From Candidatus Nealsonbacteria bacterium (GTDB lineage: Bacteria; Patescibacteriota; Minisyncoccia; Minisyncoccales; MHMH01): a stretch of DNA of 32,835 nucleotides. This document shows, one piece after another, positions 6,058 to 27,418 of this stretch. Made by a program: the position numbers and the translations under genes. The stretch covers positions 1-32,835 of the forward strand of contig JAUYKD010000038.1 of NCBI GenBank assembly GCA_030700195.1. Direction: 5' to 3'. The first letter of the stretch is position 1. Each line of letters opens with the position of its first letter. A model generated the notes under the pieces. The model had not been told where the DNA came from. It saw only the letters and a program-made list of their open reading frames with translations, and made no database searches.

Positions 6058-6085
6058 TTGACACTATTTATCTAATTGATATAGT
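6058..6085 (+). promoter_or_regulatory. Sigma70-like promoter for small Cys4 ORF
   Basis: TTGACA (6058-6063), 16 nt spacer, TATAGT (6080-6085). ATG follows 8 nt later, implying a near-leaderless transcript. Confidence 0.45.
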
Positions 6086-6093
6086 TAAAACAT

Positions 6094-6273
6094 ATGAGGG
6101 TGATAAAATGTGACCAATGTAAAAAGAGCATTAAAGAAAAGCCGGTAACTGCAGGAGTCGGATTGCTTTCCACGGTAGAATTATGCGAGAAATGTGGCGC
6201 ACCAATTTTAAAATTTTTAAGAAAATATAAATTTATAGAAACAAAAACTAATTCAAAACAAAAATATGCTTGA
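6094..6273 (+). CDS. Hypothetical small Cys4 (zinc-ribbon-like) protein, 59 aa
   Basis: Hand translation MRVIKCDQCKKSIKEKPVTAGVGLLSTVELCEKCGAPILKFLRKYKFIETKTNSKQKYA. CxxC...CxxC. Good promoter upstream. Below the ORF-track cutoff. Confidence 0.4.
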   Translation: MRVIKCDQCKKSIKEKPVTAGVGLLSTVELCEKCGAPILKFLRKYKFIETKTNSKQKYA

Positions 6274-6445
6274 CGATAAAGATATTCAAAAACTTATTAA
6301 AGTGAGTTATCTAAAGGAGCCGTATCTAAAGGATCCGAGCTCCTTGAGGTAAGTATTGTCCATAATCTTGGGTCTAACATCGTTCATTAGCCCCTGCGGA
6401 TTTCCGCCTATTCTTTTAGGCGATTTTGGTAGGATAAAAAGATAA

Positions 6446-7300
6446 ATGGAAAAGAAAAGTGTTTTTATTATTTTAGGAACTCTCGTTGGATTGAATATCT
6501 TAGCTTGGTCGGCGGTTTATGAGTTATCTAAAGGAGCCGAGCTCCTTGAGGTGACTTTTTTTGATGTGGGTCAGGGAGACGCCATTTTTATTGAAACGCC
6601 CCAGCGCCATCAGATTCTAATAGACGGTGGTCCTGATTCTGCTGTTTTAGAAAAAATGGGAAAAGAAATGCCGTTCTGGGATAGAACAATTGATTTAATA
6701 GTTTTGACTCATCCGGAGCGCGACCATATGTCCGGTTTGCTTGAGGTTTTAAAAAGATATAAAGTTGAAAACATTTTATGGACAGGAGTTTTAAGGGATA
6801 CGGCCGAATATAAAGAATGGCAGAGGTTAATTCAAAAAGAAGGCGCTAAAATTTATATTGCTCAAGCAGGCCAACGAATTGAAGGAGGCGAGATTTCCTT
6901 TGATATTCTGTATCCGTTTGACAGTTTAGAAGGGCAGGAATTTAAAGATAGCAATGACACTTCGATTATCGCCAAGCTGATTTTCAATGAAACCAGTTTT
7001 TTATTTACCGGTGATGCCACCATGAAAGTTGAAAAAAGATTAATAAACGAAGGGGAAGATATTGATTCGGATGTTTTGAAAGTCGGGCATCATGGAAGCA
7101 AAACTTCTTCGGCCGGAGAATTTATTCAAGCGGTATCTCCCGGCACGGCGGTTATTTCGGTCGGTGGAGACAATAACTACGGCCATCCTTATCCAGAAAC
7201 TTTGGCGATTTTAGAAAAATATGGTATAAAGATTCTTAGAACCGATTTAATAGGCGATATCAAAATAATTTCTGATGGGATCAATTTTATTATTCAATAA
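6446..7300 (+). CDS. ComEC/Rec2-type metallo-beta-lactamase domain protein with N-terminal TM anchor
   Basis: DVGQGDAIFIE, LTHPERDHMSG, GDA, VGHHGS motifs of the ComEC C-terminal MBL domain. One N-terminal TM helix. Confidence 0.8.
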   Translation: MEKKSVFIILGTLVGLNILAWSAVYELSKGAELLEVTFFDVGQGDAIFIETPQRHQILIDGGPDSAVLEKMGKEMPFWDRTIDLIVLTHPERDHMSGLLEVLKRYKVENILWTGVLRDTAEYKEWQRLIQKEGAKIYIAQAGQRIEGGEISFDILYPFDSLEGQEFKDSNDTSIIAKLIFNETSFLFTGDATMKVEKRLINEGEDIDSDVLKVGHHGSKTSSAGEFIQAVSPGTAVISVGGDNNYGHPYPETLAILEKYGIKILRTDLIGDIKIISDGINFIIQ

Positions 7301-7302
7301 CA

Positions 7303-8367
7303 ATGCAATTCCCAATTTTCAAAACTAAAATCAAAGGAATAACCAAAAAATTCAACCTGAACAATCCTGAAGAGAGAAGAAAGTATTTTGAATTGAAAGC
7401 AGGCAAGGAAATTAAAAAGCTTAGGGATTATCTAAAGAAGGGTAATACTTTTATAGTTTATCTTTTAGGAAAGAAGAATTCAGGCAAAGGGACTTACTCC
7501 AAGATGTTTGCTGAAATGGTTGATGCGGAGAAAATTGAGCATTTTTCAATAGGCGATATGATTAGGGTGATTGATAAAGAGCTTCAAGACGGCAAAAAAA
7601 GAAAAGAGCTCTTTAGTTTCTTGGAGAAAAATTATCGGGGGGCTCGTTCAATCAAGCAGATAGAAGAGCTTCTTAATAAAAGAAGCACCTCAGCTCCTCT
7701 TTTGCCCACAGAACTGATTTTAATTTTACTTAAAAGGGAAATCGGCAAAAGGAAAAAGAAAACTATTTTTATCGACGGTTTTCCAAGGGATTTGGACCAG
7801 CTGAATTTTACTTTGTTTTTTCGTGATCTTATCGGCTATCGAGACGACCAGGATGTTTTTGTTTTGCTTGACGTTCCCGAAGCTGTGATTGACGAAAGGA
7901 TAAAGCACCGGAGGGTTTGTCCTGCCTGTCAGACCTCAAGAAACCTAAAGCTTTTGCCGACTTCAAAGGTTGGGTATGACGAAAAGAAAAAGGAATTTTC
8001 TTTAATGTGCGACAATCCAAAGTGCTCTGGCCCGAAAATGGCTCCTAAAGAAGGAGACGACAAGGGGATTAAGCCGATTAAGGCGCGGCTGATGAAGGAC
8101 GAAGAGCTGATTAAGCAGGCCGCTTCTCTCTACGGCATTCCCAAAGTATTTTTAAGAAATTCTGTTCCAAAGAGTTTGGCCGGAGAATATGTTGATGATT
8201 ACGAGCTTACTCCCGAGTACTGCTATCAATGGGACGGTAAAAAGGTTTTGATTAAAGAAAAAAACTGGGTAATTCCGGACGATGAAGGAAGGCCGTCTTA
8301 CAGCTTACTGGCTCCTCCGGTAGTTGTTTCTTTATTCAAGCAACTCGTTGAGATTTTGAATCTTTAA
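7303..8367 (+). CDS. Adenylate-kinase-family protein with long C-terminal extension
   Basis: P-loop GKKNSGKGT, DGFPRDLDQ (compare Adk DGFPRT), Cys4 LID-like CPACQ...CDNPKC. 354 aa versus about 215 for a typical Adk. Confidence 0.6.
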   Translation: MQFPIFKTKIKGITKKFNLNNPEERRKYFELKAGKEIKKLRDYLKKGNTFIVYLLGKKNSGKGTYSKMFAEMVDAEKIEHFSIGDMIRVIDKELQDGKKRKELFSFLEKNYRGARSIKQIEELLNKRSTSAPLLPTELILILLKREIGKRKKKTIFIDGFPRDLDQLNFTLFFRDLIGYRDDQDVFVLLDVPEAVIDERIKHRRVCPACQTSRNLKLLPTSKVGYDEKKKEFSLMCDNPKCSGPKMAPKEGDDKGIKPIKARLMKDEELIKQAASLYGIPKVFLRNSVPKSLAGEYVDDYELTPEYCYQWDGKKVLIKEKNWVIPDDEGRPSYSLLAPPVVVSLFKQLVEILNL

Positions 8368-8371
8368 AATG

Positions 8372-8442
8372 TCGGGCTGTGGGGGATCGAACCCCATTCA
8401 CAGGACCCCCAGCCCTGCATAATACCAATATACGACAGCCCG
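8372..8442 (-). tRNA. tRNA-Pro (anticodon GGG), CCA not encoded
   Basis: Hand-folded cloverleaf. Acceptor CGGGCTG/CAGCCCG. Anticodon stem CAGGG/TCCTG with loop CTGGGGG. T arm TGGGG-TTCGATC-CCCCA. Short 3-bp D stem with GG in the loop. 71 nt. Confidence 0.85.
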
Positions 8443-8452
8443 CGAATTATTT

Positions 8453-8546
8453 ACCGAGTCCCGCGTAGCGGCAATGAGATAAATCTCATTTTGAACTTCA
8501 CTGCAGTTCGTTGGTTGAAGGTAGAAGATGAGGTTCGCTCATCGCC
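8453..8546 (-). repeat. Family 2 bipartite hairpin element, two units, between rpmB and tRNA-Pro
   Basis: Read on the minus strand: GGCGATGAGcgaaCCTCATCTTCTACCTTC...then...GCCGCTACGCGGGACTCGGTAAATAATT. The first hairpin contains the rpmB stop codon. Confidence 0.7.
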
Positions 8547-8730
8547 TTCTTTTACTCATTGCCTTGATGCATTTGGTGCAGGCCTTGATCCGTTTACCGG
8601 ACGACAAACGCACCCATTGGAGATTCGGGTGTTTTCTTGTTTTAACGGTTGGATTGTATTTTCCTCTTAGTTTTTTTAGTTTCCAAACCATTCTGCCTTT
8701 TTTGTCGCAAATTGCGCATTGTCTGCTCAT
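8539..8730 (-). CDS. rpmB: 50S ribosomal protein L28
   Basis: MSRQCAICDKKGRMV...PNLQWVRL...CTKCIK is the classic L28 pattern. Started at the second Met (8730) of the track ORF. Confidence 0.85.
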   Translation of the reverse strand: MSRQCAICDKKGRMVWKLKKLRGKYNPTVKTRKHPNLQWVRLSSGKRIKACTKCIKAMSKRRR

Positions 8731-8754
8731 ACAAAGATATGCTACCATAAAAGT

Positions 8755-9363
8755 ATGTCGTTGACAATCTTTTCTTTAATCGTTTTGCTTTTTTCAATAA
8801 TACTTCATGAAATAGCTCATGGCAGCATGGCTTTACGTCTGGGCGACAGCACGGCCAAGCATGCGGGACGGCTAACTCTGAATCCTTTAAAACACATTGA
8901 TCTTTTCGGCACGATTATTCTGCCGTTTCTTTTGGTTATTATACGCAGCCCTTTTATTATCGGCTGGGCAAAGCCGGTGCCCGTTAATCCATATAATTTG
9001 CGCGACCCTAAATGGGGTATGTTAAAAGTATCTTTAGCCGGTCCAAGCGTTAATTTTTTACTGGCGATAATTTTTGGTTTGATAATAAGATTTGTTCCCT
9101 TGCCAGAAGCTCTAGCGTCTTTTTTTGGCATAATCGTTTTTTATAATTTTTTATTAGGAATTTTTAACTTAATTCCCATTCCACCGCTTGATGGCTCTCA
9201 TATTCTTTTTGCTTTTTTATCAGACAGGTTTAATAATCTTAAGGTGTTTTTGTCGCAGTATGGTATTTTCATCTTTATTTTCTTTTTGTTTTTCGGCTGG
9301 CTTGATATTATTTTTCAAGGAGCGGCCATTCTTTTTTATTTGACTACCAGCCAGCCGTTTTAA
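8755..9363 (+). CDS. Site-2 protease family (peptidase M50) membrane metalloprotease
   Basis: HEIAHG zinc motif and NLIPIPPLDGSHIL motif in a polytopic membrane protein. ATG 8755 is chosen so that it does not overlap rpmB. Confidence 0.75.
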   Translation: MSLTIFSLIVLLFSIILHEIAHGSMALRLGDSTAKHAGRLTLNPLKHIDLFGTIILPFLLVIIRSPFIIGWAKPVPVNPYNLRDPKWGMLKVSLAGPSVNFLLAIIFGLIIRFVPLPEALASFFGIIVFYNFLLGIFNLIPIPPLDGSHILFAFLSDRFNNLKVFLSQYGIFIFIFFLFFGWLDIIFQGAAILFYLTTSQPF

Positions 9364-9407
9364 ATTTAATTGACTTTAACTTTAATCTCTGATAAGTTTG
9401 GGATATA

Positions 9408-9428
9408 ATGCCCACCATTCATCAACTA
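9408..9428 (+). other. Duplicated rpsL 5' end (ATGCCCACCATTCATCAACTA)
   Basis: 18 of 21 nt identical to the real rpsL start 9587-9607 (ATGCCAACCATTCATCAATTG). Encodes MPTIHQL, then runs into the repeat and a stop. Confidence 0.7.
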
Positions 9429-9533
9429 CCGAGTTCCGCGTAGCGGGACGAAGGTGGAAAAGAGGGCGAAGTCCTCTTTGACTTTAACCGAGTCCCGCAT
9501 AGCGGAACGAAGGTTCAAAGAATTTTATTCTTT
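9429..9533 (-). repeat. Family 2 bipartite hairpin element, two units (inverted orientation)
   Basis: CCGAGTTCCGCgtagCGGGACGAAGGT + AAGAGGgcgaagtCCTCTT, then CCGAGTCCCGCatagCGGAACGAAGGT + AAAGAATtttATTCTTT. Confidence 0.75.
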
Positions 9534-9586
9534 TCTATTTTCGCTAACGCTCGATTGTAGATGAATTTCATATAATCATATAATTT

Positions 9587-9997
9587 ATGCCAACCATTCA
9601 TCAATTGCTCAAAAAAGGAAGAAAGAAAACAAAAAAGCGCACCGGAGCGCCGGCTTTAGAATTTGGATTCAATGTTTTAAAAAACAGGCCCAAAAACTAC
9701 CCATCTCCTTTTAAAAGGGGAGTTTGCTTGAAAGTATTTACCGCCACCCCCAAAAAACCGAACTCGGCTTTGAGAAAAGTTGCCAGAGTAAGAATTACCA
9801 ATGGCATGGAAGTCACCGCTTACATTCCGGGAGAAGGCCATAATTTGCAGGAACACTCAATTGTTATGATAAGGGGAGGCAGAGTCAAGGATTTGCCCGG
9901 AGTCAGATACCATATTGTCAGAGGAGTATTGGATACAGCCGGGGTTGAAGGAAGAAAACAGGAAAGAAGTAAATATGGAGTTAAGAGACCAAGTTAA
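9587..9997 (+). CDS. rpsL: 30S ribosomal protein S12
   Basis: [12 protein letters not shown]...[19 protein letters not shown]...[13 protein letters not shown]. Confidence 0.97.
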
Positions 9998-10001
9998 ATA
10001 C

Positions 10002-10466
10002 ATGGCAAGAAAAAAAACAAAAAGAGAAATAGCTCCCGATTCAGTTTACAACAGCGTTGTTATTGCTAAATTTATAAACCACATTATGAAGCGTGGTAAA
10101 AAAACCATTGCCCAAAAAATCGTTTACAAAGCATTGGACATTATCCAAGAAAAAACCAAGAAAGACCCTTTGGAAACTTTTGAGAAAGCTATTCAGAATG
10201 CTTCTCCTTTACTTGAGGTAAAACCCAAAAGAGTCGGAGGAGCAACTTATCAGGTGCCCAGGGAGGTCAGAGGAGACAGAAAATTGACTTTAGCCATTAG
10301 ATGGATTATTAATGCGGCTAACTCCAAGAAAGGAAAGCCGATGAGGGAAAAGCTGGCCGAAGAATTGATTCTGGCCGCGAAAAACGAGGGTTCAGCCATT
10401 AAAAAGAAAGAAGATACGCATCGCATGGCCGAAGCCAACAGGGCTTTCGCTCATTTCTCGTGGTAA
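10002..10466 (+). CDS. rpsG: 30S ribosomal protein S7
   Basis: [18 protein letters not shown]...; ATG 10002 lies 4 nt after the rpsL stop. The track start 9915 would overlap rpsL. Confidence 0.95.
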
Positions 10467-10472
10467 TAATTT

Positions 10473-12563
10473 ATGCCCAGAAAATATCCGATAGAAAGAG
10501 TCAGAGATATCGGCATCATTGCTCACATTGATGCAGGGAAAACAACCTTTACTGAAAGGGTTCTTTTCTATACGGGCATTTCTCATAAAATTGGGGAAGT
10601 GCACGAAGGAAAAGCAATTATGGATTGGATGGTTCAGGAAAGGGAAAGAGGAATTACCATAACTTCAGCCGCTACGACGTGTTTTTGGAAGGCTGAAGGG
10701 GGAGAGGAACATAGAATCAATATTATAGATACCCCGGGCCATATTGATTTTACAGCCGAAGTTCAAAGATCTTTAAGAGTGCTTGATGGAGCGGTTGTTT
10801 TGTTTGACGGGGTGGCCGGGGTTGAGCCGCAATCAGAAACAGTCTGGCACCAGGCCGATAAATTCAAGGTTCCCCGTATTTGCTTTATTAATAAACTGGA
10901 TCGTCTCGGAGCTTCTTTTGAAAAAAGCTTGGATTCAATCTTGGAGAAGCTGACGCCCAACGCTCTGGCCATACAGCTGCCCATCGGGGCTGAAGACAAG
11001 TTTGAGGGTGTGATTGATTTGCTGAAAATGAAGGCTTTAAAGTTTGAAGGCGAGTCAGGAGAACAAACCAAGGAAGAAGAAATTCCCTCCGATCTTTTAG
11101 AAAAAGCTAAAGAATGGCGGGAGAAGATGGTTGAAAGAATAGCCGCGGAAGATGAAGAGCTTCTGGAAGATTATTTAGCTAAAAAAGAAATTTCAGTAGA
11201 CGCTTTGCAAAAAGCTTTAAGAGAAGCCGCGCTTGATTATCGGCTTGTTCCGGTTTTGTGCGGCTCTGCCCTAAAAAATAAAGGAGTACAGCAAGTGCTT
11301 GATGCAGTAGTTTATTATTTGCCCAGCCCGATTGATACGCCTCCCATCAAGGGGATTGATTTGAAAACAGGCAAGGGAATAGAAAGAAAGGCGGATGATA
11401 ACGAGTTGTTTTCAGCTTTGGCTTTTAAGGTGGCTACTGATCCGTACGTCGGGACTCTGACTTATTTCAGAGTTTATTCAGGAACTTTAAAAAAGGGATC
11501 TTATGTTTTAAATTCAACCACCGGAGAAAAAGAAAGAATTGGCCGTATTTTAAGAATGCATGCTCAAGAGAGGGAAGAGGTGGAAGAGCTGTATACCGGA
11601 GACATTGCAGCTACGGTCGGACTTAAAAACACTTCAACCGGACACACGATGTGCGATGAAAAAGAGCCGATTATTCTTGAAAAAATTGTCTTTCCTGAGC
11701 CGGTTATTTCTATCCGCATTGAACCGAAAACAAAAGCTGACCAAGAAAAAATGGGCTTTGCTTTGAAGCGTTTGGCTGATGAGGATCCGACCTTCAAAAT
11801 TAAATCTGATCCTGAGACAGGCGAAACCATAATTTCCGGAATGGGGGAGCTGCACTTGGAGATCATCGCCGATAGGATGAAAAGAGAGTTTAAGGTAGAG
11901 GCCTCTGTTGGCAAGCCGCAAGTAGCTTACAAAGAAACTATAAAACAGGAAACAGAAGCAGAAGGAAAATATATCAAGCAATCAGGGGGCAGGGGGCAGT
12001 ACGGCCATGTCTGGCTAAGAGTTTTGCCTAAAGAAAGGGGAGAAGGATTTGAGTTTGTTAATGAGATAAAAGGAGGAGTTATCCCGCAAGAATATATTTC
12101 AGCTATTGGTAAAGGGGTAAAAGAAGCCATGGACAAGGGCGTGGTGGCCGGTTATCCAATGGTTGATATGCAGGTTGTTTTGTTTGACGGTTCCTATCAC
12201 GAAGTTGACTCATCTGAAATAGCTTTTAAAATTGCCGGGGCCATGGCTTTGCAATCAGCCTGCAGAAAAGCCAAGCCGGTTTTGTTGGAGCCGATTATGA
12301 AACTTGAAGTTGTAATTCCTGAAAGCTTTTTTGGAGATACTATTGGTGATTTATCCTCAAAGCGCGGTAAGATTGAAGAAACAAAAGACCGGCTTAAGAT
12401 GAAGGTGATTGAGGCTAAAGTTCCTTTGTCTGAAATGTTCGGCTACGCAACTTCGCTCCGCTCGTTGACCGAAGGCAGAGGAAATTTTTCCATGGAGTTT
12501 GACTGCTATTCTGAAGTACCCAATAATATCGCTCAAGAAATAGTTGAAGGGAAGAGAAAATAA
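10473..12563 (+). CDS. fusA: Elongation factor G
   Basis: [21 protein letters not shown] GTPase motifs. 696 aa, in the canonical position after rpsG. Confidence 0.97.
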
Positions 12564-12649
12564 ATTCGCTAAGTTTCATAAAAGAAGGGCTTTTTTTTGT
12601 GATTTGATTATAGAAAGATTACGGATTTTTAGAGGCAAGTAATTTTTAG

Positions 12650-12678
12650 TTGACATGTTGATTTAGGCGGGGTAGGAT
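12650..12678 (+). promoter_or_regulatory. Sigma70-like promoter
   Basis: TTGACA (12650-12655), 17 nt spacer, TAGGAT (12673-12678), upstream of the small ORF. Confidence 0.4.
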
Positions 12679-12701
12679 AAGAAGGTAAACTTTATTGCTT
12701 A

Positions 12702-12902
12702 ATGGATTTAAATGAAATCAAAAAAATAATAGGGGAAGAAGGAGGAAAAATTATTGTTGTTGAGAACAACGAGCCGGTTTTGGTTATTGTTTCGTACAAC
12801 GACTATCAAAATAAAAAGCAAAAGCCGGAGAAAAAGACGGAGAATATTTTACCTAAGGAAGTAGAAGAAGAGGAGCTGAAGATAGAAGACTTGCCTTTCT
12901 AG
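12702..12902 (+). CDS. Hypothetical small acidic protein (66 aa) inserted between fusA and tuf
   Basis: The N-terminal IIVVENNEPVLVIVSYNDYQ is reminiscent of Phd/YefM-type antitoxin N-termini. Low-complexity charged tail. Weak RBS. Confidence 0.4.
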   Translation: MDLNEIKKIIGEEGGKIIVVENNEPVLVIVSYNDYQNKKQKPEKKTENILPKEVEEEELKIEDLPF

Positions 12903-12908
12903 TCTTGA

Positions 12909-13036
12909 CCCCGTTAGAAGTCTTAGCCAGAAAAAATTATTTTAATTTTTTCTGCAAGGCATAACGAGGGTATAACTAAAAACAAAGGTTTATCTGAAAT
13001 TAGCTTTGTGATATATAAGACAGACTTCTAACGGGG
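12909..13036 (+). repeat. Family 1 stem-closed element, long form (copy A, 128 nt)
   Basis: CCCCGTTAGAAGTC...GACTTCTAACGGGG termini, flanked by TTGA/TTGA. The internal sequence is very similar to copies C and D. Confidence 0.8.
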
Positions 13037-13065
13037 TTGACAATTCTTTCCAAGTTTACTAAGAT
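13037..13065 (+). promoter_or_regulatory. Candidate tuf promoter abutting element A
   Basis: TTGACA (13037-13042; its first 4 nt are the direct repeat flanking the element), 17 nt spacer, TAAGAT (13060-13065). Confidence 0.4.
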
Positions 13066-13077
13066 AATAGCTAGTTG

Positions 13078-13130
13078 CCAAGTCCCGCGCAGCGGAACAA
13101 AGGCAAAGATGAGAACGAAATTCTCATCGC
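13078..13130 (-). repeat. Family 2 bipartite hairpin element (inverted orientation)
   Basis: CCAAGTCCCGCgcagCGGAACAAAGGCAAA-GATGAGAAcgaaaTTCTCATCGC. Confidence 0.7.
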
Positions 13131-13163
13131 TTGATAATAATTAATTAATAAGGAAAAAAACAT

Positions 13164-14363
13164 ATGGCCGAGAAAGAAAAGTTCATGAGGGTAAAGCCCC
13201 ACGTTAATGTAGGCACCATTGGTCACGTTGACCATGGAAAAACCACGCTTACCGCCGCTATCCTTCATATTTTAAATCTGAAGGGTTTTAAAGTTTCGGA
13301 GAAATCTGTAGACCAGATTGATTCAGCTCCGGAAGAAAAAGCAAGAGGGCTAACTATTTCTGTTTCTCATTTGGAATACGAAACCGAGAAAAGGCATTAT
13401 GCCCACATTGACTGTCCGGGTCACGCTGACTACATTAAAAATATGATTACCGGGGCGGCTCAAATGGACGGCGCTATTTTGGTAGTTTCAGCTCCAGACG
13501 GACCAATGCCTCAAACCAGAGAGCATATTCTTTTAGCCAGACAAGTTGGTTTGCCTTCAATTATTGTCTTTTTGAACAAATGCGATGCGGTAGACGACCC
13601 GGAAATTATTGACCTGGTTGAATCAGAAGTCAGGGAGCTTTTGAATAAATATAAGTTTCCCGGAGACAAAACTCCGATTATACGAGGTTCAGCCATAAAA
13701 GCGCTTGAAGCTAAATCAGCCGATGATGAAGCAGCTAAGTCAATTATGGATTTGGTTAAGGCTTTGGACGAATCAATTCCTGAACCGGTCAGGGAAATTG
13801 ACAAACCTTTCTTAATGGCTATTGAAGACGTTTTCTCAATTGAGGGTAGAGGAACAGTGGCTACGGGAAGAATAGAAAGGGGAATTGTTAAGTCTAACGA
13901 AGAAGTGGAATTAGTCGGTATTAAACCAACAGTTAAAACCACGGTTGTCAGTCTGGAAATGTTTAATAAGATTCTTGACGAAGGAAGAGCCGGAGACAAC
14001 GTTGGTGTTTTACTCAGAGGTCTAAAGAAAGAAGACGTTGAAAGAGGCCAGGTTTTAGCTAAAACAGGCACGATGACTCCTCACACTGAATTTGAGGGAG
14101 AGATATACGTTTTGACAAAAGAAGAAGGTGGCAGACATACGCCGTTTTTTCCCGGATACAAACCTCAATTTTATATAAGAACCACTGACGTTACGGGAGA
14201 CGTTACGTTGCCCGAAGGCACTGAAATGGTTATGCCCGGAGATACGGTTAATTTGAAAGTTAAGTTGATTGTTCCGGTGGCTTTACAAGAACAGCAAAGG
14301 TTTGCCATTAGAGAAGGAGGCAAGACAGTGGGAGCCGGAGTTGTCACAAAGATCATAAAATAA
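13164..14363 (+). CDS. tuf: Elongation factor Tu
   Basis: [22 protein letters not shown]. 399 aa. Confidence 0.97.
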
Positions 14364-14370
14364 TTTTAAT

Positions 14371-14476
14371 AGCGAGTCCGCCTGAGGCGGACGAAGCTTA
14401 AGATGAAATTTATTTCATCGCCCAGCGAGTCCCGCTTAGCGGGACGAAGCTGGAGATGAATCTTTAGATTCATCGA
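14371..14476 (-). repeat. Family 2 bipartite hairpin element, two units (inverted orientation)
   Basis: AGCGAGTCCGCCtgaGGCGGACGAAGC + GATGAAATttATTTCATCGCC, then AGCGAGTCCCGCttagCGGGACGAAGC + GATGAATCTttAGATTCATCGAC. Confidence 0.8.
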
Positions 14477-14482
14477 CTAAGA

Positions 14483-14824
14483 ATGCCTAAGAAAAAGACA
14501 GAATCAGTTGAAAATGAAGTTAGGCCTAAGATACGCATAAAGCTGAGGGCCTATGACCATAAGGTAATTGATAAGAGCGCTCGCGAGATATGTGAGACGG
14601 CTTTACGTTATGGGGTTGAAATTTCAGGTCCGGTACCTTTGCCAACGGAAATTCAGAAATACACGGTCAATCGGTCAAGTTTTATTCATAAAGATGCCAG
14701 AGAGCAGTTTGAAATGAGAATCCATAAAAGATTAATTGACATTTTAACTCCCAACAGCCGGGTGATAGATGCCTTAATGAACTTAACTCTGCCGGCCGGC
14801 GTAGATATTGAAATCAAAATGTAA
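14483..14824 (+). CDS. rpsJ: 30S ribosomal protein S10
   Basis: [17 protein letters not shown]...; short N-terminal extension. Confidence 0.95.
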
Positions 14825-14828
14825 ACAG

Positions 14829-14851
14829 AAAATCGCCAAAAGGGCGATTTT
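14829..14851 (+). terminator. Hairpin with T run after rpsJ (terminator-like)
   Basis: AAAATCGCC-AAAAG-GGCGATTTT. Confidence 0.5.
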
Positions 14852-14966
14852 GGTAAAATAAAATATGGGATTTGACAGAGTTTGTGTATAATGTTAGATT
14901 TATAGAAGGTTTAATAACATGTTTTTATTTACTTAAATAAGAAACATCAGTTAAATTGCCTCGGAG

Positions 14967-14989
14967 AACTGGGCAATGGCCCAGTTTTT
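14967..14989 (+). promoter_or_regulatory. Hairpin plus T run 8 nt upstream of rplC (attenuator-like)
   Basis: AACTGGGC-AATG-GCCCAGTT followed by TTT. Confidence 0.3.
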
Positions 14990-14996
14990 GATTATA

Positions 14997-15608
14997 ATGG
15001 AAAAATTCATATTAGGTTTAAAATTAGGCATGAGTCAGATGTTTGATGAAAAGGGCAATGTTGTGCCTCTAACTTTAGTTGAAGCGGGTCCATGCCAAGT
15101 TACTCAAATGAAAACTAAAGAAAAAGATGGATACGAGGCTGTTCAAATTGGTTTTAAGCAAATTGAAAAAAAGATTAAGAAATCAATGAAGAAAAAACCG
15201 TTTCGTTACCTTAAAGAGTTCAAAATTGTCGAAGAGGATAAATCCTCTTCTTCACCTTTCGCTGCGGCTCAGGTATTAGACGTTTCTTTATTTAACGAAG
15301 GAGATAAGGTTAAGATTTCAGGTGTTTCTAAAGGAAAAGGATTCCAGGGACCGGTTAAAAGATGGGGGTTTTCAGGCAGAAACGCCACTCACGGAGTTAA
15401 ACATGAACATAGAACATTGGGGTCTGTGGGTACAACCGGCCCTCAAAGAGTTATGAAGGGGAAGAAAATGGCTGGTCGCATGGGTTCAGATAGAGTAACA
15501 GTTAAGAATTTAAAAGTGGTAAAAGTGGATAAAGAAAATAATTTATTAGCTATCGCAGGAGCCGTGCCCGGAAAAAACGGTTCATTATTAGAGATTAGGG
15601 GAAGATGA
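14997..15608 (+). CDS. rplC: 50S ribosomal protein L3
   Basis: MEKFILGLKLGMSQMFDEKGNVVPLTLVEAGPC matches the usual L3 N-terminus. The track start 14976 lies inside the upstream hairpin. Confidence 0.9.
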   Translation: MEKFILGLKLGMSQMFDEKGNVVPLTLVEAGPCQVTQMKTKEKDGYEAVQIGFKQIEKKIKKSMKKKPFRYLKEFKIVEEDKSSSSPFAAAQVLDVSLFNEGDKVKISGVSKGKGFQGPVKRWGFSGRNATHGVKHEHRTLGSVGTTGPQRVMKGKKMAGRMGSDRVTVKNLKVVKVDKENNLLAIAGAVPGKNGSLLEIRGR

Positions 15609-16237
15609 AGACACAAATTTTTGACCAAACCGGAAAAGAAATCGGACAAGCCTTGCTGCCAAAGGAAATTTTCGGTTTAGAATTAAGTTCTGATTTAGTT
15701 TATCAAACAGTTTTTTCTCAAACAGCTAACCGTCGGCAAGGATCGGCTCATACTAAGGACAGAGGAGAAGTTAGCGGTGGAGGAAAAAAGCCTTGGAGGC
15801 AAAAAGGCACTGGTCGGGCTAGACATGGTTCAATTCGTTCACCTCTTTGGAAGGGGGGAGGAGTTACATTTGGTCCGAATAACGCAAAAGTTTTTAAGAA
15901 AAAAATCAATAAAAAATCACAGAGAAAAGCTTTATTGATGGTCTTATCCGCCAAAGCGCAGAAAAATCTGATTGTTTTGGTTGATAAGCTGAAAATCGAG
16001 AAACCGAGAACCAAGGAAATGGGTGAAATCTTAAAAAACCTTCCGTGTAAGGAAGGCAAATGCTTGATTGTTTTGCCGGTTATGGATAAAAACATAATTT
16101 TATCTGCCAGAAATCTCGAGAATGTTAAAGTTATGCAGGCTAAAGATTTGAATGTTTTGGATGCCTTGAGCTGCAAATATATGGTTTTGCCGAAAGAATC
16201 AATAAAAGTTATCAAAGAAACCTTTGTAAGTCGATGA
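15605..16237 (+). CDS. rplD: 50S ribosomal protein L4
   Basis: GGGKKPWRQKGTGRARHGSIRSPLWKGGGVTFGP. ATGA overlap with rplC. Confidence 0.94.
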   Translation: MKTQIFDQTGKEIGQALLPKEIFGLELSSDLVYQTVFSQTANRRQGSAHTKDRGEVSGGGKKPWRQKGTGRARHGSIRSPLWKGGGVTFGPNNAKVFKKKINKKSQRKALLMVLSAKAQKNLIVLVDKLKIEKPRTKEMGEILKNLPCKEGKCLIVLPVMDKNIILSARNLENVKVMQAKDLNVLDALSCKYMVLPKESIKVIKETFVSR

Positions 16238-16284
16238 AAATAAATTTTAATCTTCAACTTCGTTCCGCTATAGCGGAACTCGGT
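16233..16284 (+). repeat. Family 2 bipartite hairpin element
   Basis: GATGAAAATaaATTTTAATCTTCAACTTCGTTCCGCtataGCGGAACTCGGT. The rplD stop TGA is inside the first hairpin. It is followed by AAATAATTATG (rplW start). Confidence 0.75.
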
Positions 16285-16292
16285 AAATAATT

Positions 16293-16736
16293 ATGGCTTT
16301 ATTTGATATTTTTAAAAAAAAGGTTGGGAAAAAAGAAAAGACTGAAAAAAAAGAACAAAAGAAAGAAATTAAAATTGCAGAAAAACCGAAAAAGACTGTT
16401 GTAAAAAAGGAAAAGAAGGAAGCGCCTCTTCCGTCAAAACCGCAGAAAACATCTCCCAATGCTTACTCTATTTTGAAAGGGCCGCATATTACCGAAAAAG
16501 CGACCGAATTGGTTTCAGCCAACCAGTATATTTTTAATGTTTATGTTAAAGCTAACAAGCCGGAGATTAAAAAAACAATAGAAGATATTTATGGAGTTAA
16601 GGTAGTTAGCGTCAATATTGTTAATATTCCAGCTAAAAAAAGAAGATTAGGGAAAATAGAGGGTTGGAGGAAGGGATATAAAAAAGCGATTGTTAAAATA
16701 AAAGCAGGGCAAAAAATAGAAGTTTTACCCCGTTAA
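16293..16736 (+). CDS. rplW: 50S ribosomal protein L23 with about 55-aa Lys-rich N-terminal extension
   Basis: The C-terminal two-thirds (ILKGPHITEKAT...NIVNIPAKKRR...KKAIVKIKAGQKIE) is L23. The N-terminus is KKEKK-type low complexity. Confidence 0.9.
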   Translation: MALFDIFKKKVGKKEKTEKKEQKKEIKIAEKPKKTVVKKEKKEAPLPSKPQKTSPNAYSILKGPHITEKATELVSANQYIFNVYVKANKPEIKKTIEDIYGVKVVSVNIVNIPAKKRRLGKIEGWRKGYKKAIVKIKAGQKIEVLPR

Positions 16737-16783
16737 ATAATTTTACTAAAGTAAAATTGTTGCGAAACAACATTTAACAGGGT
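16727..16783 (+). repeat. Family 1 stem-closed element, short form (three-way junction) spanning rplW stop to rplB start
   Basis: P1 ACCCCGTTAAAT/ATTTAACAGGGT. P2 AATTTTAC-TAAA-GTAAAATT. P3 GTTG-CGAAA-CAAC. The rplW TAA sits in the 5' arm and the rplB GTG in the 3' arm. Confidence 0.7.
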
Positions 16784-17606
16784 GAACCGAGATAATATGT
16801 TAAAGAACTTAGCGACAAAAGAAAACTTCAGATTATTAACCAAAAAGAAGCCGGAAAAAGGTTTGCTCTTAAAATTGCAGCAAAGATCAGGCAGAGGGTC
16901 CAGCGGGAGAATAACAGTTAGACATCAAGGCGGGGGAGCTAAAAAACTTTATCGTCTAGTGGATTTCGGACAGGAAAAATTGGATATCAAGGCAAAAGTT
17001 GCTTCTTTGGAATACGATCCTTACAGATCTTCCTTTATTATGCTTTTAGAATATCAAGGAGGAGATAAGCGCTATCGTTTAGCTCCTCAAGGATTAAAGG
17101 TTGGAGACAGCGTTGTTTGTCAGGAAAAAGCTGATTTAAATATAGGCAATAGAATGAAATTAAGACATATTCCGGTTGGAACTTCTGTTTACAATATTGA
17201 ACTTATTCCCGGTCAGGGCGGAAAATTAGCCAGGGGAGCCGGTACATCGGCCAAGGTTTTGGCGCATGAGGAAAAATACTGTAATATTGAGATGCCTTCG
17301 GGAGAAGTAAGAAGGACGTCTGAAGAGTGTTTTGCTTCTATCGGCGCTCTTTCCAGGGCAGAGCATATTTACACAGTATTGGGAAAAGCGGGTAAAGCGC
17401 GCCATAAAGGAATAAGGCCCAGCGTTAAAGGTTCAGCCATGATTCCTGCAGATCACCCGCATGGAGGAGGAGAAGGGAGAGCCCCAATCGGATTGAAATA
17501 TCCCAAGACCCCTTGGGGAAAACATGCTTTGGGAGTCAAAACAAGAAAAAGGCATCTGACGGATAAATATATAATTCAAAGAAGGTCAAAGAAATCAAAG
17601 AAATAA
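16782..17606 (+). CDS. rplB: 50S ribosomal protein L2
   Basis: GRITVRHQGGGAKKLYR, ...HPHGGGEGR. The start is either GTG 16782 (inside the element arm) or ATG 16797. Confidence 0.93.
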   Translation: MNRDNMLKNLATKENFRLLTKKKPEKGLLLKLQQRSGRGSSGRITVRHQGGGAKKLYRLVDFGQEKLDIKAKVASLEYDPYRSSFIMLLEYQGGDKRYRLAPQGLKVGDSVVCQEKADLNIGNRMKLRHIPVGTSVYNIELIPGQGGKLARGAGTSAKVLAHEEKYCNIEMPSGEVRRTSEECFASIGALSRAEHIYTVLGKAGKARHKGIRPSVKGSAMIPADHPHGGGEGRAPIGLKYPKTPWGKHALGVKTRKRHLTDKYIIQRRSKKSKK

Positions 17607-17645
17607 ATTTCTTTTCTACCTTCGTCCTGCTTCGCAGGACTCGGT
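17598..17645 (+). repeat. Family 2 bipartite hairpin element
   Basis: AAAGAAATaaATTTCTTTTCTACCTTCGTCCTGCttcGCAGGACTCGGT. The rplB stop TAA is in the first hairpin. It is followed by AAATAATTATG (rpsS start), identical to the rplW context. Confidence 0.75.
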
Positions 17646-17653
17646 AAATAATT

Positions 17654-17980
17654 ATGTCAAGAAGTTTAAAAAAAGGTCCATATGTCGATGAAAGGGTATT
17701 GAGAAAGCTGAAGAATTTAAAGCCGGGAGACAAGGCCATTATTAAGACATGGGCAAGAAGCTGCGCTATAAGTCCTGAAATGATTGGGTTTACCTTTGGA
17801 GTTCATAATGGCAAAGAACACGTGCCAGTCCACATTACTGAAGATATGGTCGGACATCGCCTGGGCGAATTTAGTTCAACGACTAAGTTTGGCAGGCATG
17901 GAGGCAGAATGCAGAAAGATATTGAGACGAAAGAAGCTGGTAAAGAAACTCAAAGCATAAAAATCGAACAAAAAGAATGA
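17654..17980 (+). CDS. rpsS: 30S ribosomal protein S19 with C-terminal charged extension
   Basis: MSRSLKKGPYVDE...FGVHNGKEHVPVHITEDMVGHRLGEF. Confidence 0.95.
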   Translation: MSRSLKKGPYVDERVLRKLKNLKPGDKAIIKTWARSCAISPEMIGFTFGVHNGKEHVPVHITEDMVGHRLGEFSSTTKFGRHGGRMQKDIETKEAGKETQSIKIEQKE

Positions 17981-17981
17981 A

Positions 17982-18117
17982 CCCCGTTAGAAGTCTTAGA
18001 ATTTAAAATTTTGATGAGAAAATTTTTAAATTTGAATAAATAAAATATATCAACTATAAAAATCAACTATGTCCAATAATAATTATCATAGAACAGAAAA
18101 AGCAACTTCTAACGGGG
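17982..18117 (+). repeat. Family 1 stem-closed element, long form (copy B, 136 nt, divergent interior)
   Basis: CCCCGTTAGAAGTC...(A)ACTTCTAACGGGG, flanked by TGAA/TGAA. The interior is unrelated to copies A, C and D. Confidence 0.75.
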
Positions 18118-18506
18118 TGAAAAGCAAAGCCAAACTCAACTATTTAAGAATAGCTCCGAGAAAAGTAAGATTGGTGGCCGATATAATTCGCGGCAAATCT
18201 GTTTTTGACGCCAGGAATATTTTGGGCTTTACTATTAAGAAAGCGGCTCATCCCATGTTGAAGCTTTTGAATTCAGCCGTAGCTAATGCCGGGGATATGC
18301 CAGTAGAGAATCTTTTCATATCAAAAGTTGAGGTTAATGAAGGCCCGAAATTAAAAAGGTCCAGGCCCAGAGCTCGGGGCAGAGCATACGAGATACAGAA
18401 AAAGACAAGTCATATTATTATTGTTCTGGATGAAAAAATAACAAAATCTAAAAAACCCAGAAGAAAGGCAAAACCTTCCGCTGGTCTAAAAAAACATGAG
18501 TCATAA
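18117..18506 (+). CDS. rplV: 50S ribosomal protein L22
   Basis: GTG 18117 gives (M)KSKAKLNYLRIAPRKVRLVADIIRGK, the usual spacing to the RKVRLVAD motif. The track ATG 18069 is in-frame but inside element B. Lys-rich C-terminal tail overlaps rpsC. Confidence 0.85.
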   Translation: MKSKAKLNYLRIAPRKVRLVADIIRGKSVFDARNILGFTIKKAAHPMLKLLNSAVANAGDMPVENLFISKVEVNEGPKLKRSRPRARGRAYEIQKKTSHIIIVLDEKITKSKKPRRKAKPSAGLKKHES

Positions 18507-19131
18507 GGTGCATCCAAAATCATTTAGGTTGAGAAATTCCAGCGATTGGGATTCCAGATGGTTGAGCAAGAAAAATATGCCCCAGTATTTGGAGGAGGAT
18601 TTTAAGATTAGGCAATTTCTTGAGAAGAAGCTCAAAGAGTGCGCCATGGAGCGCGTTGAAATTGAAAGATTCTCAGAAAAAATTAATGTTATTATCAATA
18701 GCGGTCGTCCCGGTTTGATTATAGGAAGAGGCGGCAAAGGAGCGGAAGATCTGAAAAAAGAAATAGAAAAATTTTTAAAAGCCAAATCAGAGGTAAGAAT
18801 TGAAATAAGAGAGATTAAAAATGTTTGGGCTTCAGCTTCTTTATCGGCTCAATGGGTGGCTCAGCAGCTGGAAAAGAGAATGCCGCACCGTCGTGTTTTA
18901 AAACAGGCCATGGAGAAAATTATAGCTAATAAAGAAGTAAAGGGAGCTAAAATAGAAGTTTCAGGAAGATTAGGCGGCTCTGAAATCGCCAGAAGAGAAT
19001 GGCTGAAAAAGGGAAGATTGCCATTGCAGACCTTGAGAGCTATAATTGATTACAACCAATCAGAGGCTTTCTGTACGTACGGAGTTATCGGCGTTAAAGT
19101 TTGGATTTATAAAGGTGAAAGATTTGAATAG
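18496..19131 (+). CDS. rpsC: 30S ribosomal protein S3
   Basis: [12 protein letters not shown]...KH domain [13 protein letters not shown].... Confidence 0.95.
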
Positions 19132-19133
19132 CG

Positions 19134-19544
19134 ATGCTTTATCCTAAAAAAGTAAAACATAGAAAATGGCATAGGGGTAAAAGAAGAGGCAAGGGAATAG
19201 AAACCAGAGGAACTGAGCTGAGCTTTGGCAGTTTTGGCTTAAAAGCCCAGGACGGTAAATGGCTAACTGCCCGTCAGATTGAAGCTGCCAGAAGAGCAAT
19301 CATTAGATATTTAAAGAAAGGCGGCAAGCTTTGGATAAGGATTTTTCCGGATAAGCCTGTAACCCAAAAAGGGACAGAAGTGCCGATGGGCGGCGGCAAA
19401 GGAGGAGTTGACCATTATGTTTCTGTGGTTAAGCCGGGTAGAATGCTTTTTGAGTTAGAGGGGATAAAAGAAGAGATGGCCAGAGAAGCGTTTAAGAAAG
19501 CAACTACCAAGTTGCCAATTAAGACTAAATTTGTTAAGAAATGA
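19134..19544 (+). CDS. rplP: 50S ribosomal protein L16
   Basis: [15 protein letters not shown]...[11 protein letters not shown].... Confidence 0.95.
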
Positions 19545-19545
19545 A

Positions 19546-19677
19546 CCCCGTTAGAAGTCCTAGCCCGAAAAAATTTAGATTAAATTTTTTCTGCAAGGCA
19601 ATAACGAGGGAATAACCAATAATAAATGTTTGTCTGAAATTAGCTTTGTGCTATATTAAGATAGACTTCTAACGGGG
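19546..19677 (+). repeat. Family 1 stem-closed element, long form (copy C, 132 nt)
   Basis: CCCCGTTAGAAGTC...GACTTCTAACGGGG, flanked by TGAA/TGAA. The last G is the first base of the rpmC GTG. Confidence 0.8.
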
Positions 19678-19910
19678 TGAAGATACAAGACCTTCGCCAA
19701 AAAACAAAGCAAGAAATCGCAAAACTCCTGGTTGATAGCCGGGAACGTTTAAGATTATTAAGATTTGACCTGGCAGCCGGCAAAGTGAAAAATGTCAGGG
19801 AAATCAGACAGCTTAAAAAAGATATTGCCAGAATATTAACATTGCTAATTGAGCTCCGCGATAGCGGAGCGAAGATAAAGAAGAGAATAAAATTCTCTTC
19901 GCCTAAATAA
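19677..19910 (+). CDS. rpmC: 50S ribosomal protein L29, C-terminal about 18 aa encoded by a family 2 repeat
   Basis: (M)KIQDLRQKTKQEIAKLLVDSRERLRLLRFDLAAGKVKNVREIRQLKKDIARILT is L29. The tail LRDSGAKIKKRIKFSSPK is read from the hairpin element 19851-19903. Confidence 0.9.
   Translation: MKIQDLRQKTKQEIAKLLVDSRERLRLLRFDLAAGKVKNVREIRQLKKDIARILTLLIELRDSGAKIKKRIKFSSPK
19851..19903 (-). repeat. Family 2 bipartite hairpin element inside the rpmC 3' end (inverted orientation)
   Basis: GAGCTCCGCgataGCGGAGCGAAGATAAA-GAAGAGAATaaaATTCTCTTCGCC. Confidence 0.7.
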
Positions 19911-19914
19911 CATG

Positions 19915-20046
19915 CCCCGTTAGAAGTCTTAGCCAGAAAAAATTTGAATTAAATTTTTTCTGCAAGGCAATAACGAGGGTATAACCAATAATAAATATTT
20001 GTCTGAAATTAGTTTTATGCTATATTAAGACAAACTTCTAACGGGG
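19915..20046 (+). repeat. Family 1 stem-closed element, long form (copy D, 132 nt)
   Basis: CCCCGTTAGAAGTC...(A)ACTTCTAACGGGG, flanked by CATG/TATG. The rpsQ ATG starts 2 nt after the element. Confidence 0.8.
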
Positions 20047-20047
20047 T

Positions 20048-20311
20048 ATGCCAAAAAAGAAATTATCCGGAGTTATTACTTCGGTCAAAATGAAAAATAC
20101 AGCGGTTGTTAAGGTAGAGAGGCTCAAGCGGCATCCAAAATACCTTCGGACATATAAGATTCACAAAAAATACAAAGCTCATATTGAAGGAGCTGAATAT
20201 GCCGTGGGAGAAAAGGTTATTATTGAAGAGTGCGTGCCTGTGAGCAAAGATAAAAAGTGGAAAGTTATTAAAAAAGTCGATGACAAAATTTCGTTAGTCA
20301 ATGAAAAATAA
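20048..20311 (+). CDS. rpsQ: 30S ribosomal protein S17
   Basis: KLSGVITSVKMKNTAVVKVERLKRHPKY...EECVPVSKDKKWKV. Confidence 0.93.
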   Translation: MPKKKLSGVITSVKMKNTAVVKVERLKRHPKYLRTYKIHKKYKAHIEGAEYAVGEKVIIEECVPVSKDKKWKVIKKVDDKISLVNEK

Positions 20312-20409
20312 ATTTTTCATTTCCAACTTTACCCTCGTTAGTCAATGAAAAAGGGCGATGAGAACTTTGTTCTCATCTTCACCTTCGTTTTAATAAATTA
20401 AAACTCGGT
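20301..20409 (+). repeat. Family 2 bipartite hairpin elements (one degenerate and one full unit)
   Basis: ATGAAAAATaaATTTTTCATTTCCAACTTT...CTCGTTAGTC, then GGGCGATGAGAACtttGTTCTCATCTTCACCTTCGTTTTAATaaATTAAAACTCGGTC. The rpsQ stop lies in the first hairpin. Confidence 0.7.
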
Positions 20410-20783: not shown

Positions 20784-20837
20784 GCGATGAGAATAGAATT
20801 CTCATCTTCAACTTCGTCCCGCTGCGCGGGACTCGTT
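20783..20837 (+). repeat. Family 2 bipartite hairpin element
   Basis: (TA)GGCGATGAGAATagAATTCTCATCTTCAACTTCGTCCCGCtgcGCGGGACTCGTT, followed by CAATG (rplX start). Confidence 0.8.
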
Positions 20838-27409: not shown

Positions 27410-27418
27410 TAGAATCTA

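Follow-up and report, generated by a model that had tools for sequence, protein, structure and literature searches.

We analysed a 32.8-kb stretch of DNA (hereafter the window) from a Candidatus Nealsonbacteria contig, JAUYKD010000038.1, positions 1 to 32,835, which carries the str, S10 and spc ribosomal operons. Two short palindromic elements in it, copy A between rplW and rplB and copy B in another gene's leader, probably belong to an uncatalogued family of palindromic insertions, spread across phyla and resembling miniature inverted-repeat transposable elements (MITEs) and repetitive extragenic palindromes (REPs). In the S10 mRNA, copy A would be a folding passenger whose compact fold probably renders it harmless.

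Structure of the two short elements

Copies A and B share a 12-bp outer stem (P1) that encloses two abutting hairpins (P2 and P3).

16727-16783, no strand assigned: short element copy A, 57 nt; 62.8 bits, E 2e-14 with covariance model R1
4561-4618, no strand assigned: short element copy B, canonical class, 58 nt; covariance model score 83.5 bits, E 5e-20

Copy A is laid out as ACCCCGTTAAAT, AATTTTAC-TAAA-GTAAAATT, GTTG-CGAAA-CAAC and ATTTAACAGGGT, with P1 formed by 16727-16738 and 16772-16783, P2 by 16739-16758 (8 bp, loop TAAA) and P3 by 16759-16771 (4 bp, loop CGAAA); together with the flanks that are conserved in the family, it covers 16724-16786 (TTT...GAA). Copy B is laid out as ACCCTGTTAAAT, AATTTCGCC-TTT-GGCGAAATT, GCCGC-AAA-GCGGC and ATTTAATAGGGT, with P1 at 4561-4572 and 4607-4618, P2 at 4573-4593, P3 at 4594-4606 and flanks TTC...AAA, and stands between a promoter-like site (4510-4538) and a DUF5679 gene (4663-4818), that is, in the leader of this gene. 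The minimum free energy (MFE) and centroid structures given by RNAfold were, for both copies, a three-way junction with zero unpaired junction bases, at -14.8 kcal/mol for copy A (z -3.9) and -30.4 kcal/mol for copy B (z -6.9), and 0 of 200 shuffles were equally stable in either case. The minus strands folded equally well (A -20.0, B -26.1 kcal/mol). Sequences and RNAfold thus agree with the first-pass annotation of this DNA, which had described a shared outer stem around two hairpins; its term 'perfect' junction is right for the absence of unpaired junction bases and slightly overstated for P1, which on the plus strand has one C.A mismatch in copy A and one G.U pair in copy B.

Covariance model R1, seeded with 35 other copies and excluding copy A, recovered A and B and no further copy in the window. 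Many paired positions differ between the interiors of A and B, and the two elements are oppositely oriented on one replichore. The window contains 10 occurrences of the nonamer ACCCYGTTA (0.23 expected), all of them in inverted pairs, which correspond to the two short elements and to four long forms of 130-138 nt (at 12908, 17981, 19545 and 19914).

Insertion of copy A at the rplW-rplB junction

Three features define the surroundings of copy A.

16293-16736, + strand: rplW (L23), its last three codons and stop running into the 5' arm of copy A
16787-16796, + strand: putative remnant of the ancestral rplW 3' end and rplW-rplB junction, CCGAGATAAT, from alignment with the empty junctions of loci L001 and L003
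16797-17606, + strand: rplB (L2), ATG 16797, 13 nt beyond the 3' arm of the element

The nearest relatives available, Nealsonbacteria-like contigs (loci L001-L005) with L2 proteins 76-77% identical, have a compact S10 operon in which rplW and rplB are 1-3 nt apart and the element is absent; covariance model R1 found zero copies in 53 kb of these loci. The empty junctions, TTACCAAGATAATATG in L001 and TTACCAAAATAAACTATG in L003, read GAATTATTACCAAGATAATATG and GAAGTTTTACCAAAATAAACTATG, respectively, with the common form GAAGTTTTACCAAxATAA(n)ATG. The window instead reads GAAGTTTTA[CCCCGTTAAAT...ATTTAACAGGGTGAA]CCGAGATAATATG (insert in brackets), where the insert begins CCCC and ends AGGGTGAA, between GAAGTTTTA and CCGAGATAATATG. 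Given that the relatives' junctions are empty and that the old stop and junction persist downstream, the alignments indicate that copy A is an insertion of ~59 nt, 7 nt 5' of the ancestral rplW stop. This old stop (TAA 16793-16795) lies directly 5' of the rplB ATG, and the ancestral CCx AGA TAA (n) ATG is still legible at 16787-16799. The rplW gene now ends TTA CCC CGT TAA (L-P-R-stop), and its ancestral end, TTA CCx AGA TAA, was likewise L-P-R/K-stop, so the element terminus CCC CGT TAA re-creates the Pro-Arg-stop ending of L23.

The present rplW stop, TAA 16734-16736, lies within the 5' arm of P1, as had been noted from the letters alone. The GTG that had been taken as the rplB start (GTG 16782) does fall within the 3' arm and shares the rplB frame, yet is an unlikely start, because the N-terminus MLKN... 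is conserved from ATG 16797 (MLKK... and MLKN... in relatives) and the product as called has 269 aa (266 aa in most listed homologues). The start of rplB is likely ATG 16797, its ancestral start, and the element therefore does not extend from the rplW stop to the rplB start as had been proposed. A role specific to this junction does not hold either, as the nearest relatives have the junction empty and copies elsewhere occupy other junctions beside unrelated neighbours.

A separate feature of L23 in this window (147 aa) is a lysine-rich N-terminal extension of ~58 aa that precedes the Pfam L23 domain (residues 60-143) and is also found in the relatives (144-150 aa).

Insertion of copy B and the target of the short forms

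Copy B appears, from the syntenic loci, to be an independent insertion in the DUF5679 gene leader. Its orthologous site is empty in L268, ...GGAAAACTAAATT^AAAGGTCGATTC... (AAATT^AAAGGTCG), and in L269, ...GTGGAT^AAAGGTCG, and is filled in L270 and L117 by elements with unrelated interiors, the one in L270 being a 37-nt mini form without hairpins. At both reconstructed sites, TTC+ACCC...GGG stands directly 5' of a native TAAA (copy A being read on the minus strand), and neither site has a target-site duplication. Among short forms, duplications of 2-9 bp under three boundary definitions were not above chance, nor were matching flanking 4-mers (4 in the first 120 copies, null 1.6). Insertion beside a tetranucleotide without duplication fits both reconstructed sites, which are two sites only.

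Flanking direct repeats of at least 7 nt were found at 28 of 119 copies (null mean 11.7, maximum 23). We rejected these as target-site duplications: several share a recurrent ATCTGYG motif that looks like an independent local repeat. This motif, ATCTG(C/T)G(T) or its complement CGCAGAT, occurs in one to three copies beside elements of one subfamily (e.g. L019:7250-7360, L029, L057, L096:11385-11475, L207 and L210), sometimes as 8-9-nt direct repeats on both sides, and may represent either a target preferred by the elements or a separate operator-like repeat.

Size and spread of the family

Metagenomes and GTDB genomes, each collection yielding at least 120 matching stretches, were scanned with the pattern ACCCYGTTAAAT-N25-50-ATTTAAYRGGGT, leaving the interior unconstrained, and at least 241 unique copies remained from both collections after duplicate removal. 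These were selected by their outer arms only, so that the core of the 12-15-nt inverted termini seen in 241 of 241 copies follows from the construction of the scan; conservation reaches 3 nt past the pattern (TTY...RAA flanks), which gives family termini of the form TTY-ACCCYGTTAAAT ... ATTTAACRGGGT-RAA. Between the same termini, interiors range from 6 to 124 nt, and the short forms measure 46-80 nt. The arm subtype GTTAAAT goes with the short Y-shaped forms, while GTTAGAA/GTTAGAT is that of the long forms in the window and, elsewhere, also of plain 30-34-nt hairpins and of 76-132-nt forms. Copies in WOR-3 have interiors of ~40 nt without the two-hairpin fold.

The first 80 genome matches listed comprise 46 Patescibacteria, 8 Omnitrophota, 8 WOR-3, 7 unlabelled genomes and 11 with other labels. 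The Patescibacteria are Nealson-, Nomura-, Doudna-, Moran-, Kaiser-, Magasanik-, Niyogi- and Sungiibacteria and 'Saccharibacteria', and the matches include a complete Nealsonbacteria genome and a single-cell genome. Metagenome-assembled genomes (MAGs) hold several copies each (3-5 in five MAGs, as lower bounds). Some MAG labels are perhaps unreliable. Several independent MAGs stand for each phylum, and WOR-3 and Omnitrophota have five assemblies or more apiece. A copy from a Sungiibacteriota MAG (L204) agrees with copy B at 57 of 58 positions, and together with the at least 241 copies this bears out the earlier view that the two loci represent one structured family and are not recent duplicates of each other.

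The family is absent from the catalogues that we consulted. For either element, Rfam gave no hit at gathering score over the whole window and none at E <= 5 over 4300-20300. The arm sequences appeared in no paper of relevant context, and no such element was described among Patescibacteria MITE papers. BLAST of the consensus element against plasmids and phages returned zero matches, as did a scan of IMG/VR for the short form; the long-form 15-mer gave 22 unpaired single matches in IMG/VR, which we took as chance.

At four loci, two Y elements, or an element and an extra arm, are tandem or nested (L133:2050-2162, L104:6675-6770, L236:4586-4672 and L170:2050-2164), from which it follows that elements can land beside or inside one another.

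Long forms in the window

The four long forms stand at the following positions.

12908-13037, no strand assigned: long form, 130 nt, between a small open reading frame (ORF) and tuf; ACCCCGTTAGAAGTC / GACTTCTAACGGGGT; direct repeat TTGA/TTGA
17981-18118, no strand assigned: long form, 138 nt, with a different interior, at the rpsS-rplV junction; TGAA/TGAA; rplV start GTG 18117
19545-19678, no strand assigned: long form, 134 nt, at the rplP-rpmC junction; TGAA/TGAA; rpmC start GTG 19677
19914-20047, no strand assigned: long form, 134 nt, at the rpmC-rpsQ junction; ATG duplicated (CATG/TATG)

All four have flanking duplications of 3-4 bp (TTGA, TGAA, TGAA and (C/T)ATG), and the relatives have empty sites at these positions, for example AACATGCC at rpmC-rpsQ. 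Removal of a long form together with one repeat restores an ATGA stop/start overlap at rpsS-rplV and rplP-rpmC, and the relatives' AACATGCC junction at rpmC-rpsQ. The rplV and rpmC genes start with GTG because the last G of the element takes the place of the A in ATG. The suggestion that long and short forms are one family with variable cargo stands as far as the shared 9-nt termini and the interiors of 6 to 124 nt are concerned; it is weakened by arms that differ past these 9 nt and by the duplications, 3-4 bp in long forms versus none in short ones. The combination of CC ends with a 4-bp duplication may be a likeness to IS1380.

Conservation of the fold

Two inner helices are present in 173 of the 241 copies, and 149 (62%) form a perfect junction-tight Y, compared with 7.2% and 0.29%, respectively, of dinucleotide-shuffled interiors. 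Loops are mostly of 3 nt. When 35 copies of the 58-nt class were aligned without gaps, changes on both sides were seen in 13 of 14 P2/P3 pairs and 98.7% of cells were paired; 0 of 500 shuffles reached the observed values, and pairing was lost when partners were slid. Because this 35-copy set was selected by predicted fold, the unbiased statement is that of 62% versus 0.29%. Both results agree with the proposal that pairing in P2 and P3 is kept despite sequence change. Hairpins of the P2 type (AATTTYGCY...RGCRAAATT) lie within the element in 24 of 25 cases, and insertion of a nested hairpin module was accordingly rejected as the source of P2.

The further proposal of selection on RNA structure was, apart from a modest G.U excess in the inner hairpins (below), not borne out by strand tests on 97 copies located between co-directional genes. 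The order of the two hairpins relative to transcription is unbiased (32 vs 23), the sense minus antisense MFE averages -0.08 kcal/mol, and P1 mismatches on the sense strand are C.A in 10 cases and U.G in 1, the reverse of what an RNA helix prefers. The neighbours are unrelated housekeeping genes (recA, nusA, ribosomal proteins, aminoacyl-tRNA synthetases), and copies in the S10/spc operons of other lineages occupy rplD-rplW, rpsQ-rplN and rplB-rpsS. Of these 97 copies, 14 have an upstream ORF that stops at the TAA of the arm, as happens at copy A. Features expected of a cis-regulatory RNA were not found among the copies, whose position is not conserved, whose orientation is not fixed and which match no curated covariance model. 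Given the strand symmetry, the unrelated neighbours and the varied junctions, the data argue against a dedicated rplW/rplB regulator and favour a strand-symmetric palindrome that is tolerated in transcripts.

Search for a mobilising enzyme

Around the copies (1.73 Mb), we found no autonomous element or transposase with these termini, and no terminus pairs 600-3000 nt apart. The lone candidate for a full-length element, at L219 with one mismatch allowed, was discarded as an MBL-fold gene between unrelated direct repeats.

The window encodes a Y1/IS200-like protein resembling REP-associated tyrosine transposases (RAYTs) at 27477-28205 (+ strand, 242 aa; Pfam PF01797, 42.7 bits; NCBIfam NF047646, 49 bits, under its cut-off of 80). 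A hairpin, CACAGACCCGACCTGTG, is inverted around this gene (27419-27435 on the + strand, 28227-28243 on the - strand), with a third copy inside it (27677-27693). Homologues of ~240 aa that are 55-72% identical (L271:2960-3760, L272:2960-3770, L273:2970-3750 and L274:2960-3790) each stand between inverted hairpins in which the stem varies (GCGGAG/CTCCGC, AGAG/CTCT, CAGAG/CTCTG) and the loop ACCCGAC/GTCGGGT is conserved. Judging from these five loci, the hairpins, with their covarying stems, form the ends of an IS200/REPtron-like unit of Nealsonbacteria-like genomes. We rejected the window's Y1 gene as the mobiliser: it and its four homologues are flanked by ACCCGAC-loop hairpins, with no ACCCYGTTA termini nearby, and a homologue is found at only one other of 265 loci. 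The gene is not flanked by dispersed ACCCYGTTA repeats, as a REP/REPIN system would have it, and the element differs from IS200/IS605 derivatives, which have conserved subterminal hairpins bound by TnpA and lack terminal inverted repeats, in that its termini are a long inverted repeat and its inner hairpins the variable part. Also at this locus, the start of the downstream gene is present twice through a 35-nt direct repeat (27376-27410 / 28327-28361), and the Y1 gene and an ORF at 26974-27279 lie between M24 peptidase and Sm_multidrug_ex genes that are adjacent in relatives.

Interpretation and alternatives

The palindromic insertion family that we favour is MITE-like in having two short and four long copies in 33 kb, with empty sites in relatives for A, B and the long forms, and REP-like in that its short extragenic palindromes occur in either orientation and compensatory changes preserve their stems. 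Its constant part would be the 12-15-nt terminal inverted repeat and its interior a variable cargo, in Patescibacteria and Omnitrophota mostly two abutting hairpins, through which either single strand, DNA or RNA, may fold into a Y. The termini would be recognition sites of a mobilising enzyme acting in trans. Insertion 5' of TAAA, with TTC at the other end and no duplication, points to a non-classical mechanism rather than to a staggered-cut DDE transposase, with an enzyme that possibly acts on folded single-stranded DNA; the latter is suggested because the absence of duplication, the fixed adjacent tetranucleotide, the asymmetric ends and the 30-nt minimal forms (two sites and flank statistics) resemble the signature of a single-strand enzyme. 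The fold may be kept by a need of mobilisation, by the tolerability of such insertions in coupled operons, or by template-switch correction of quasi-palindromes.

Several observations weigh against this explanation. As described above, the surroundings of the copies yielded neither an autonomous partner nor widely spaced terminus pairs. A DDE-type MITE should duplicate its target site, which the short forms do not: 4-mers match at only 13 of 241 copies, and 107 of 241 carry the asymmetric flank TTCA...TAAA or its reverse complement. Interiors of copies within one genome differ strongly, unlike those of a recent burst. The junction-tight build and the abundant compensatory changes exceed what a neutral stuffer would keep, and inner hairpins on the sense strand show a modest excess of G.U (45) over A.C (21), which could reflect RNA-level selection or strand-biased mutation. 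Finally, the same site filled independently in several lineages could mean an ancient insertion followed by turnover of the interior.

An alternative that we consider unlikely is a functional structured RNA, in which the three-way junction would be selected in mRNA for processing, stability or coupling, and mobility or duplication would only spread it. Folds well beyond those of shuffles, the compensatory changes in 13 of 14 P2/P3 pairs, the 62% versus 0.29% of perfect junctions, the sense-strand G.U excess and the confinement of P2-type hairpins to the element would all suit such an RNA; moreover, 83% of classifiable copies lie between co-directional genes and are therefore transcribed, and the fold sets the rplW stop beside the 3' arm, 13 nt from the rplB ATG, where it could preserve coupling. 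However, hairpin order and fold energy are unbiased with respect to transcription, sense-strand P1 mismatches (including that of copy A) are C.A rather than G.U by 10 to 1, and conserved unpaired nucleotides number zero. The orthologous junctions of the nearest relatives are empty, copies also occur in divergent and convergent spacers and with hairpin-less interiors, and Rfam holds no match. Template-switch mutation can maintain perfect palindromes without selection and may do so here. Equally improbable, in our view, is a novel type of unit, mobile or copied: a Y palindrome without a transposase of its own, whose conserved stem would be read, either as RNA or as folded single-stranded DNA, by an enzyme that many hosts have in common. 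This would account for the near-identical termini in Patescibacteria, Omnitrophota and WOR-3, the TAAA insertion without duplication, the 30-nt hairpins and the strict fold, which could also preserve translational coupling in compact operons. We give still less credence to the specific version in which a Xer-type tyrosine recombinase or HUH (Y1) enzyme of the host acts at such a site on folded single-stranded DNA with no dedicated transposase. It would agree with termini conserved across phyla without a linked transposase, with both reconstructed sites lacking duplication beside a fixed tetranucleotide, with the consistent asymmetry of the ends (107/241), with plain hairpins of 30-34 nt that would be too short for two double-stranded, transposase-bound ends to synapse, and with the RAYT/IS200-like Y1 protein encoded in the window; the arm and the XerD arm of E. 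coli dif also appear to have TGTTAAAT in common. Against it stand the separate hairpins (loop ACCCGAC) of the Y1 gene and its four homologues and the rarity of such genes (found at just one further locus of 265). Between the arms lie 25-50 nt versus a 6-8-nt spacer, and the inner Xer half-arm TTATG is unmatched. The opposite orientation of A and B on one replichore is contrary to strict replication-strand specificity, and the long forms carry duplications. That A and B are chance palindromes or drifting recent duplicates outside any wider family might be thought from the presence of merely two short copies in a 33-kb contig, but the collection scans and covariance model scores (E 2e-14 and 5e-20) refute it, with at least 241 copies in independent assemblies, paired positions that differ widely between A and B, and the 57/58 identity of B to a copy from another class; its probability is close to nil.

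Other roles were rejected. Near copy A we found one weak promoter-like match at chance level and no plus-strand terminator; no T-run follows the element in either orientation, and the -35-like TTAACA of the arm is wrongly spaced from the -10-like boxes downstream at other loci. A DNA-uptake sequence was dismissed since every 9-mer in the window belongs to an inverted pair and since, of ~290 termini per orientation in the loci retrieved, 256 have a partner within 200 nt. Identity with attC or dif fails on box order and spacing.

Comparison with known systems

Correia elements (CREE/NEMIS), which occur in Neisseria only, are ~100-155 bp long and duplicate the TA at which they insert. The present family resembles them in being small and non-coding, with terminal inverted repeats and short and long classes, in its scatter over intergenic and intra-operon sites, and in co-transcription, stable mRNA stems and signals supplied at its ends; it differs in its short forms of 46-80 nt, the absence of duplication in these, the branched Y without junction bases and its occurrence in several phyla. 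With REP/BIME and REPIN-RAYT systems it has in common short extragenic palindromes in both orientations and many copies, often in operons, structure kept through stem changes, presumed mobilisation in trans of folded single strands without duplication, and a RAYT-like gene in the window. Unlike REPs, which are species-specific and flank their own RAYT, its termini are near-identical across phyla, the RAYT-like gene of the window has a different hairpin, and P2 and P3 differ from each other, so that there is no inverted identical doublet. RUP, ERIC/IRU, Nezha and the Rickettsia palindromic elements are likewise small, with terminal inverted repeats and no coding capacity, show presence/absence polymorphism, lie near or extend into gene ends, and have unrelated interiors with one terminus type; most of them, however, have a known or inferable autonomous insertion sequence and defined duplications, neither of which was found for the short forms.

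Sites of the attC and dif-like kind also have conserved short inverted end boxes around a variable, structured centre, at times a branched one, and their recognition takes place on folded single strands. GTTAAAT/ATTTAAC fits the attC consensus GTTRRRY/RYYYAAC, and 8 nt appear to match the XerD arm. In our elements, GTTAAAT is 5', ATTTAAC is 3' and GTT is outermost, whereas attC has R'' (RYYYAAC)...R' (GTTRRRY) with AAC/GTT innermost; the copies stand singly in housekeeping operons and not in cassette arrays, and the arms are 25-50 nt apart rather than 6-8.

Other repeats and neighbouring features

At least two more families of intergenic hairpin repeats occupy the str/S10/spc region, often right after stops, in spacers that are much shorter in relatives. 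They have the forms ...CGTCCCGC-NNN-GCGGGACG... and GATGAGAA-NNNN-TTCTCATC, and repeats of these families lie at 5390-5482, 8443-8488, 9418-9522, 13067-13130, 14371-14482, 16230-16281, 17600-17646 and 20784-20835, with further ones at 4450-4485, 4816-4851 and 20351-20386. Downstream of the DUF5679 gene, ~1.6 kb of the window (4819-6445) separates it from an MBL-fold (ComEC-like) gene; this segment, absent in relatives, where the two genes are ~90-200 nt apart, carries a ribbon-helix-helix ORF (5058-5273), a NUDIX hydrolase (5435-5980) and a small zinc-ribbon-like ORF (6094-6273). At other loci, a conserved leader hairpin of ~36 nt, GATTTTTATAGTCGCT..GCTC.TTAAAAATC, ends 3-4 nt before the ATG of such unrelated genes as recA, nusA, typA and mraZ (e.g. 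L010:2777-2818, L076:1557-1598, L079:2940-2981, L149 and L215). It often follows directly on a Y element, which produces a sharp 39-nt peak in the distance from element to start codon.

Significance

The ultra-small, streamlined genomes of the Patescibacteria type are thought to be poor in repetitive and mobile DNA. Here, a tiny element appears to have entered the most conserved and tightly coupled operon at several junctions without breaking it. By shifting stops and creating GTG starts, such elements can mislead gene callers, as at the rplW end and the rplV and rpmC starts, and their strong folds can pass for riboswitch-like or other regulatory RNAs in comparative screens. If it is true that a host recombinase or HUH enzyme acts on the branched single strand, this would be a new mobilisation route. 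With near-identical termini in three or more phyla for which groundwater and sediment are common habitats, the family might serve as a marker of DNA exchange among these uncultured lineages, and perhaps as its vehicle.

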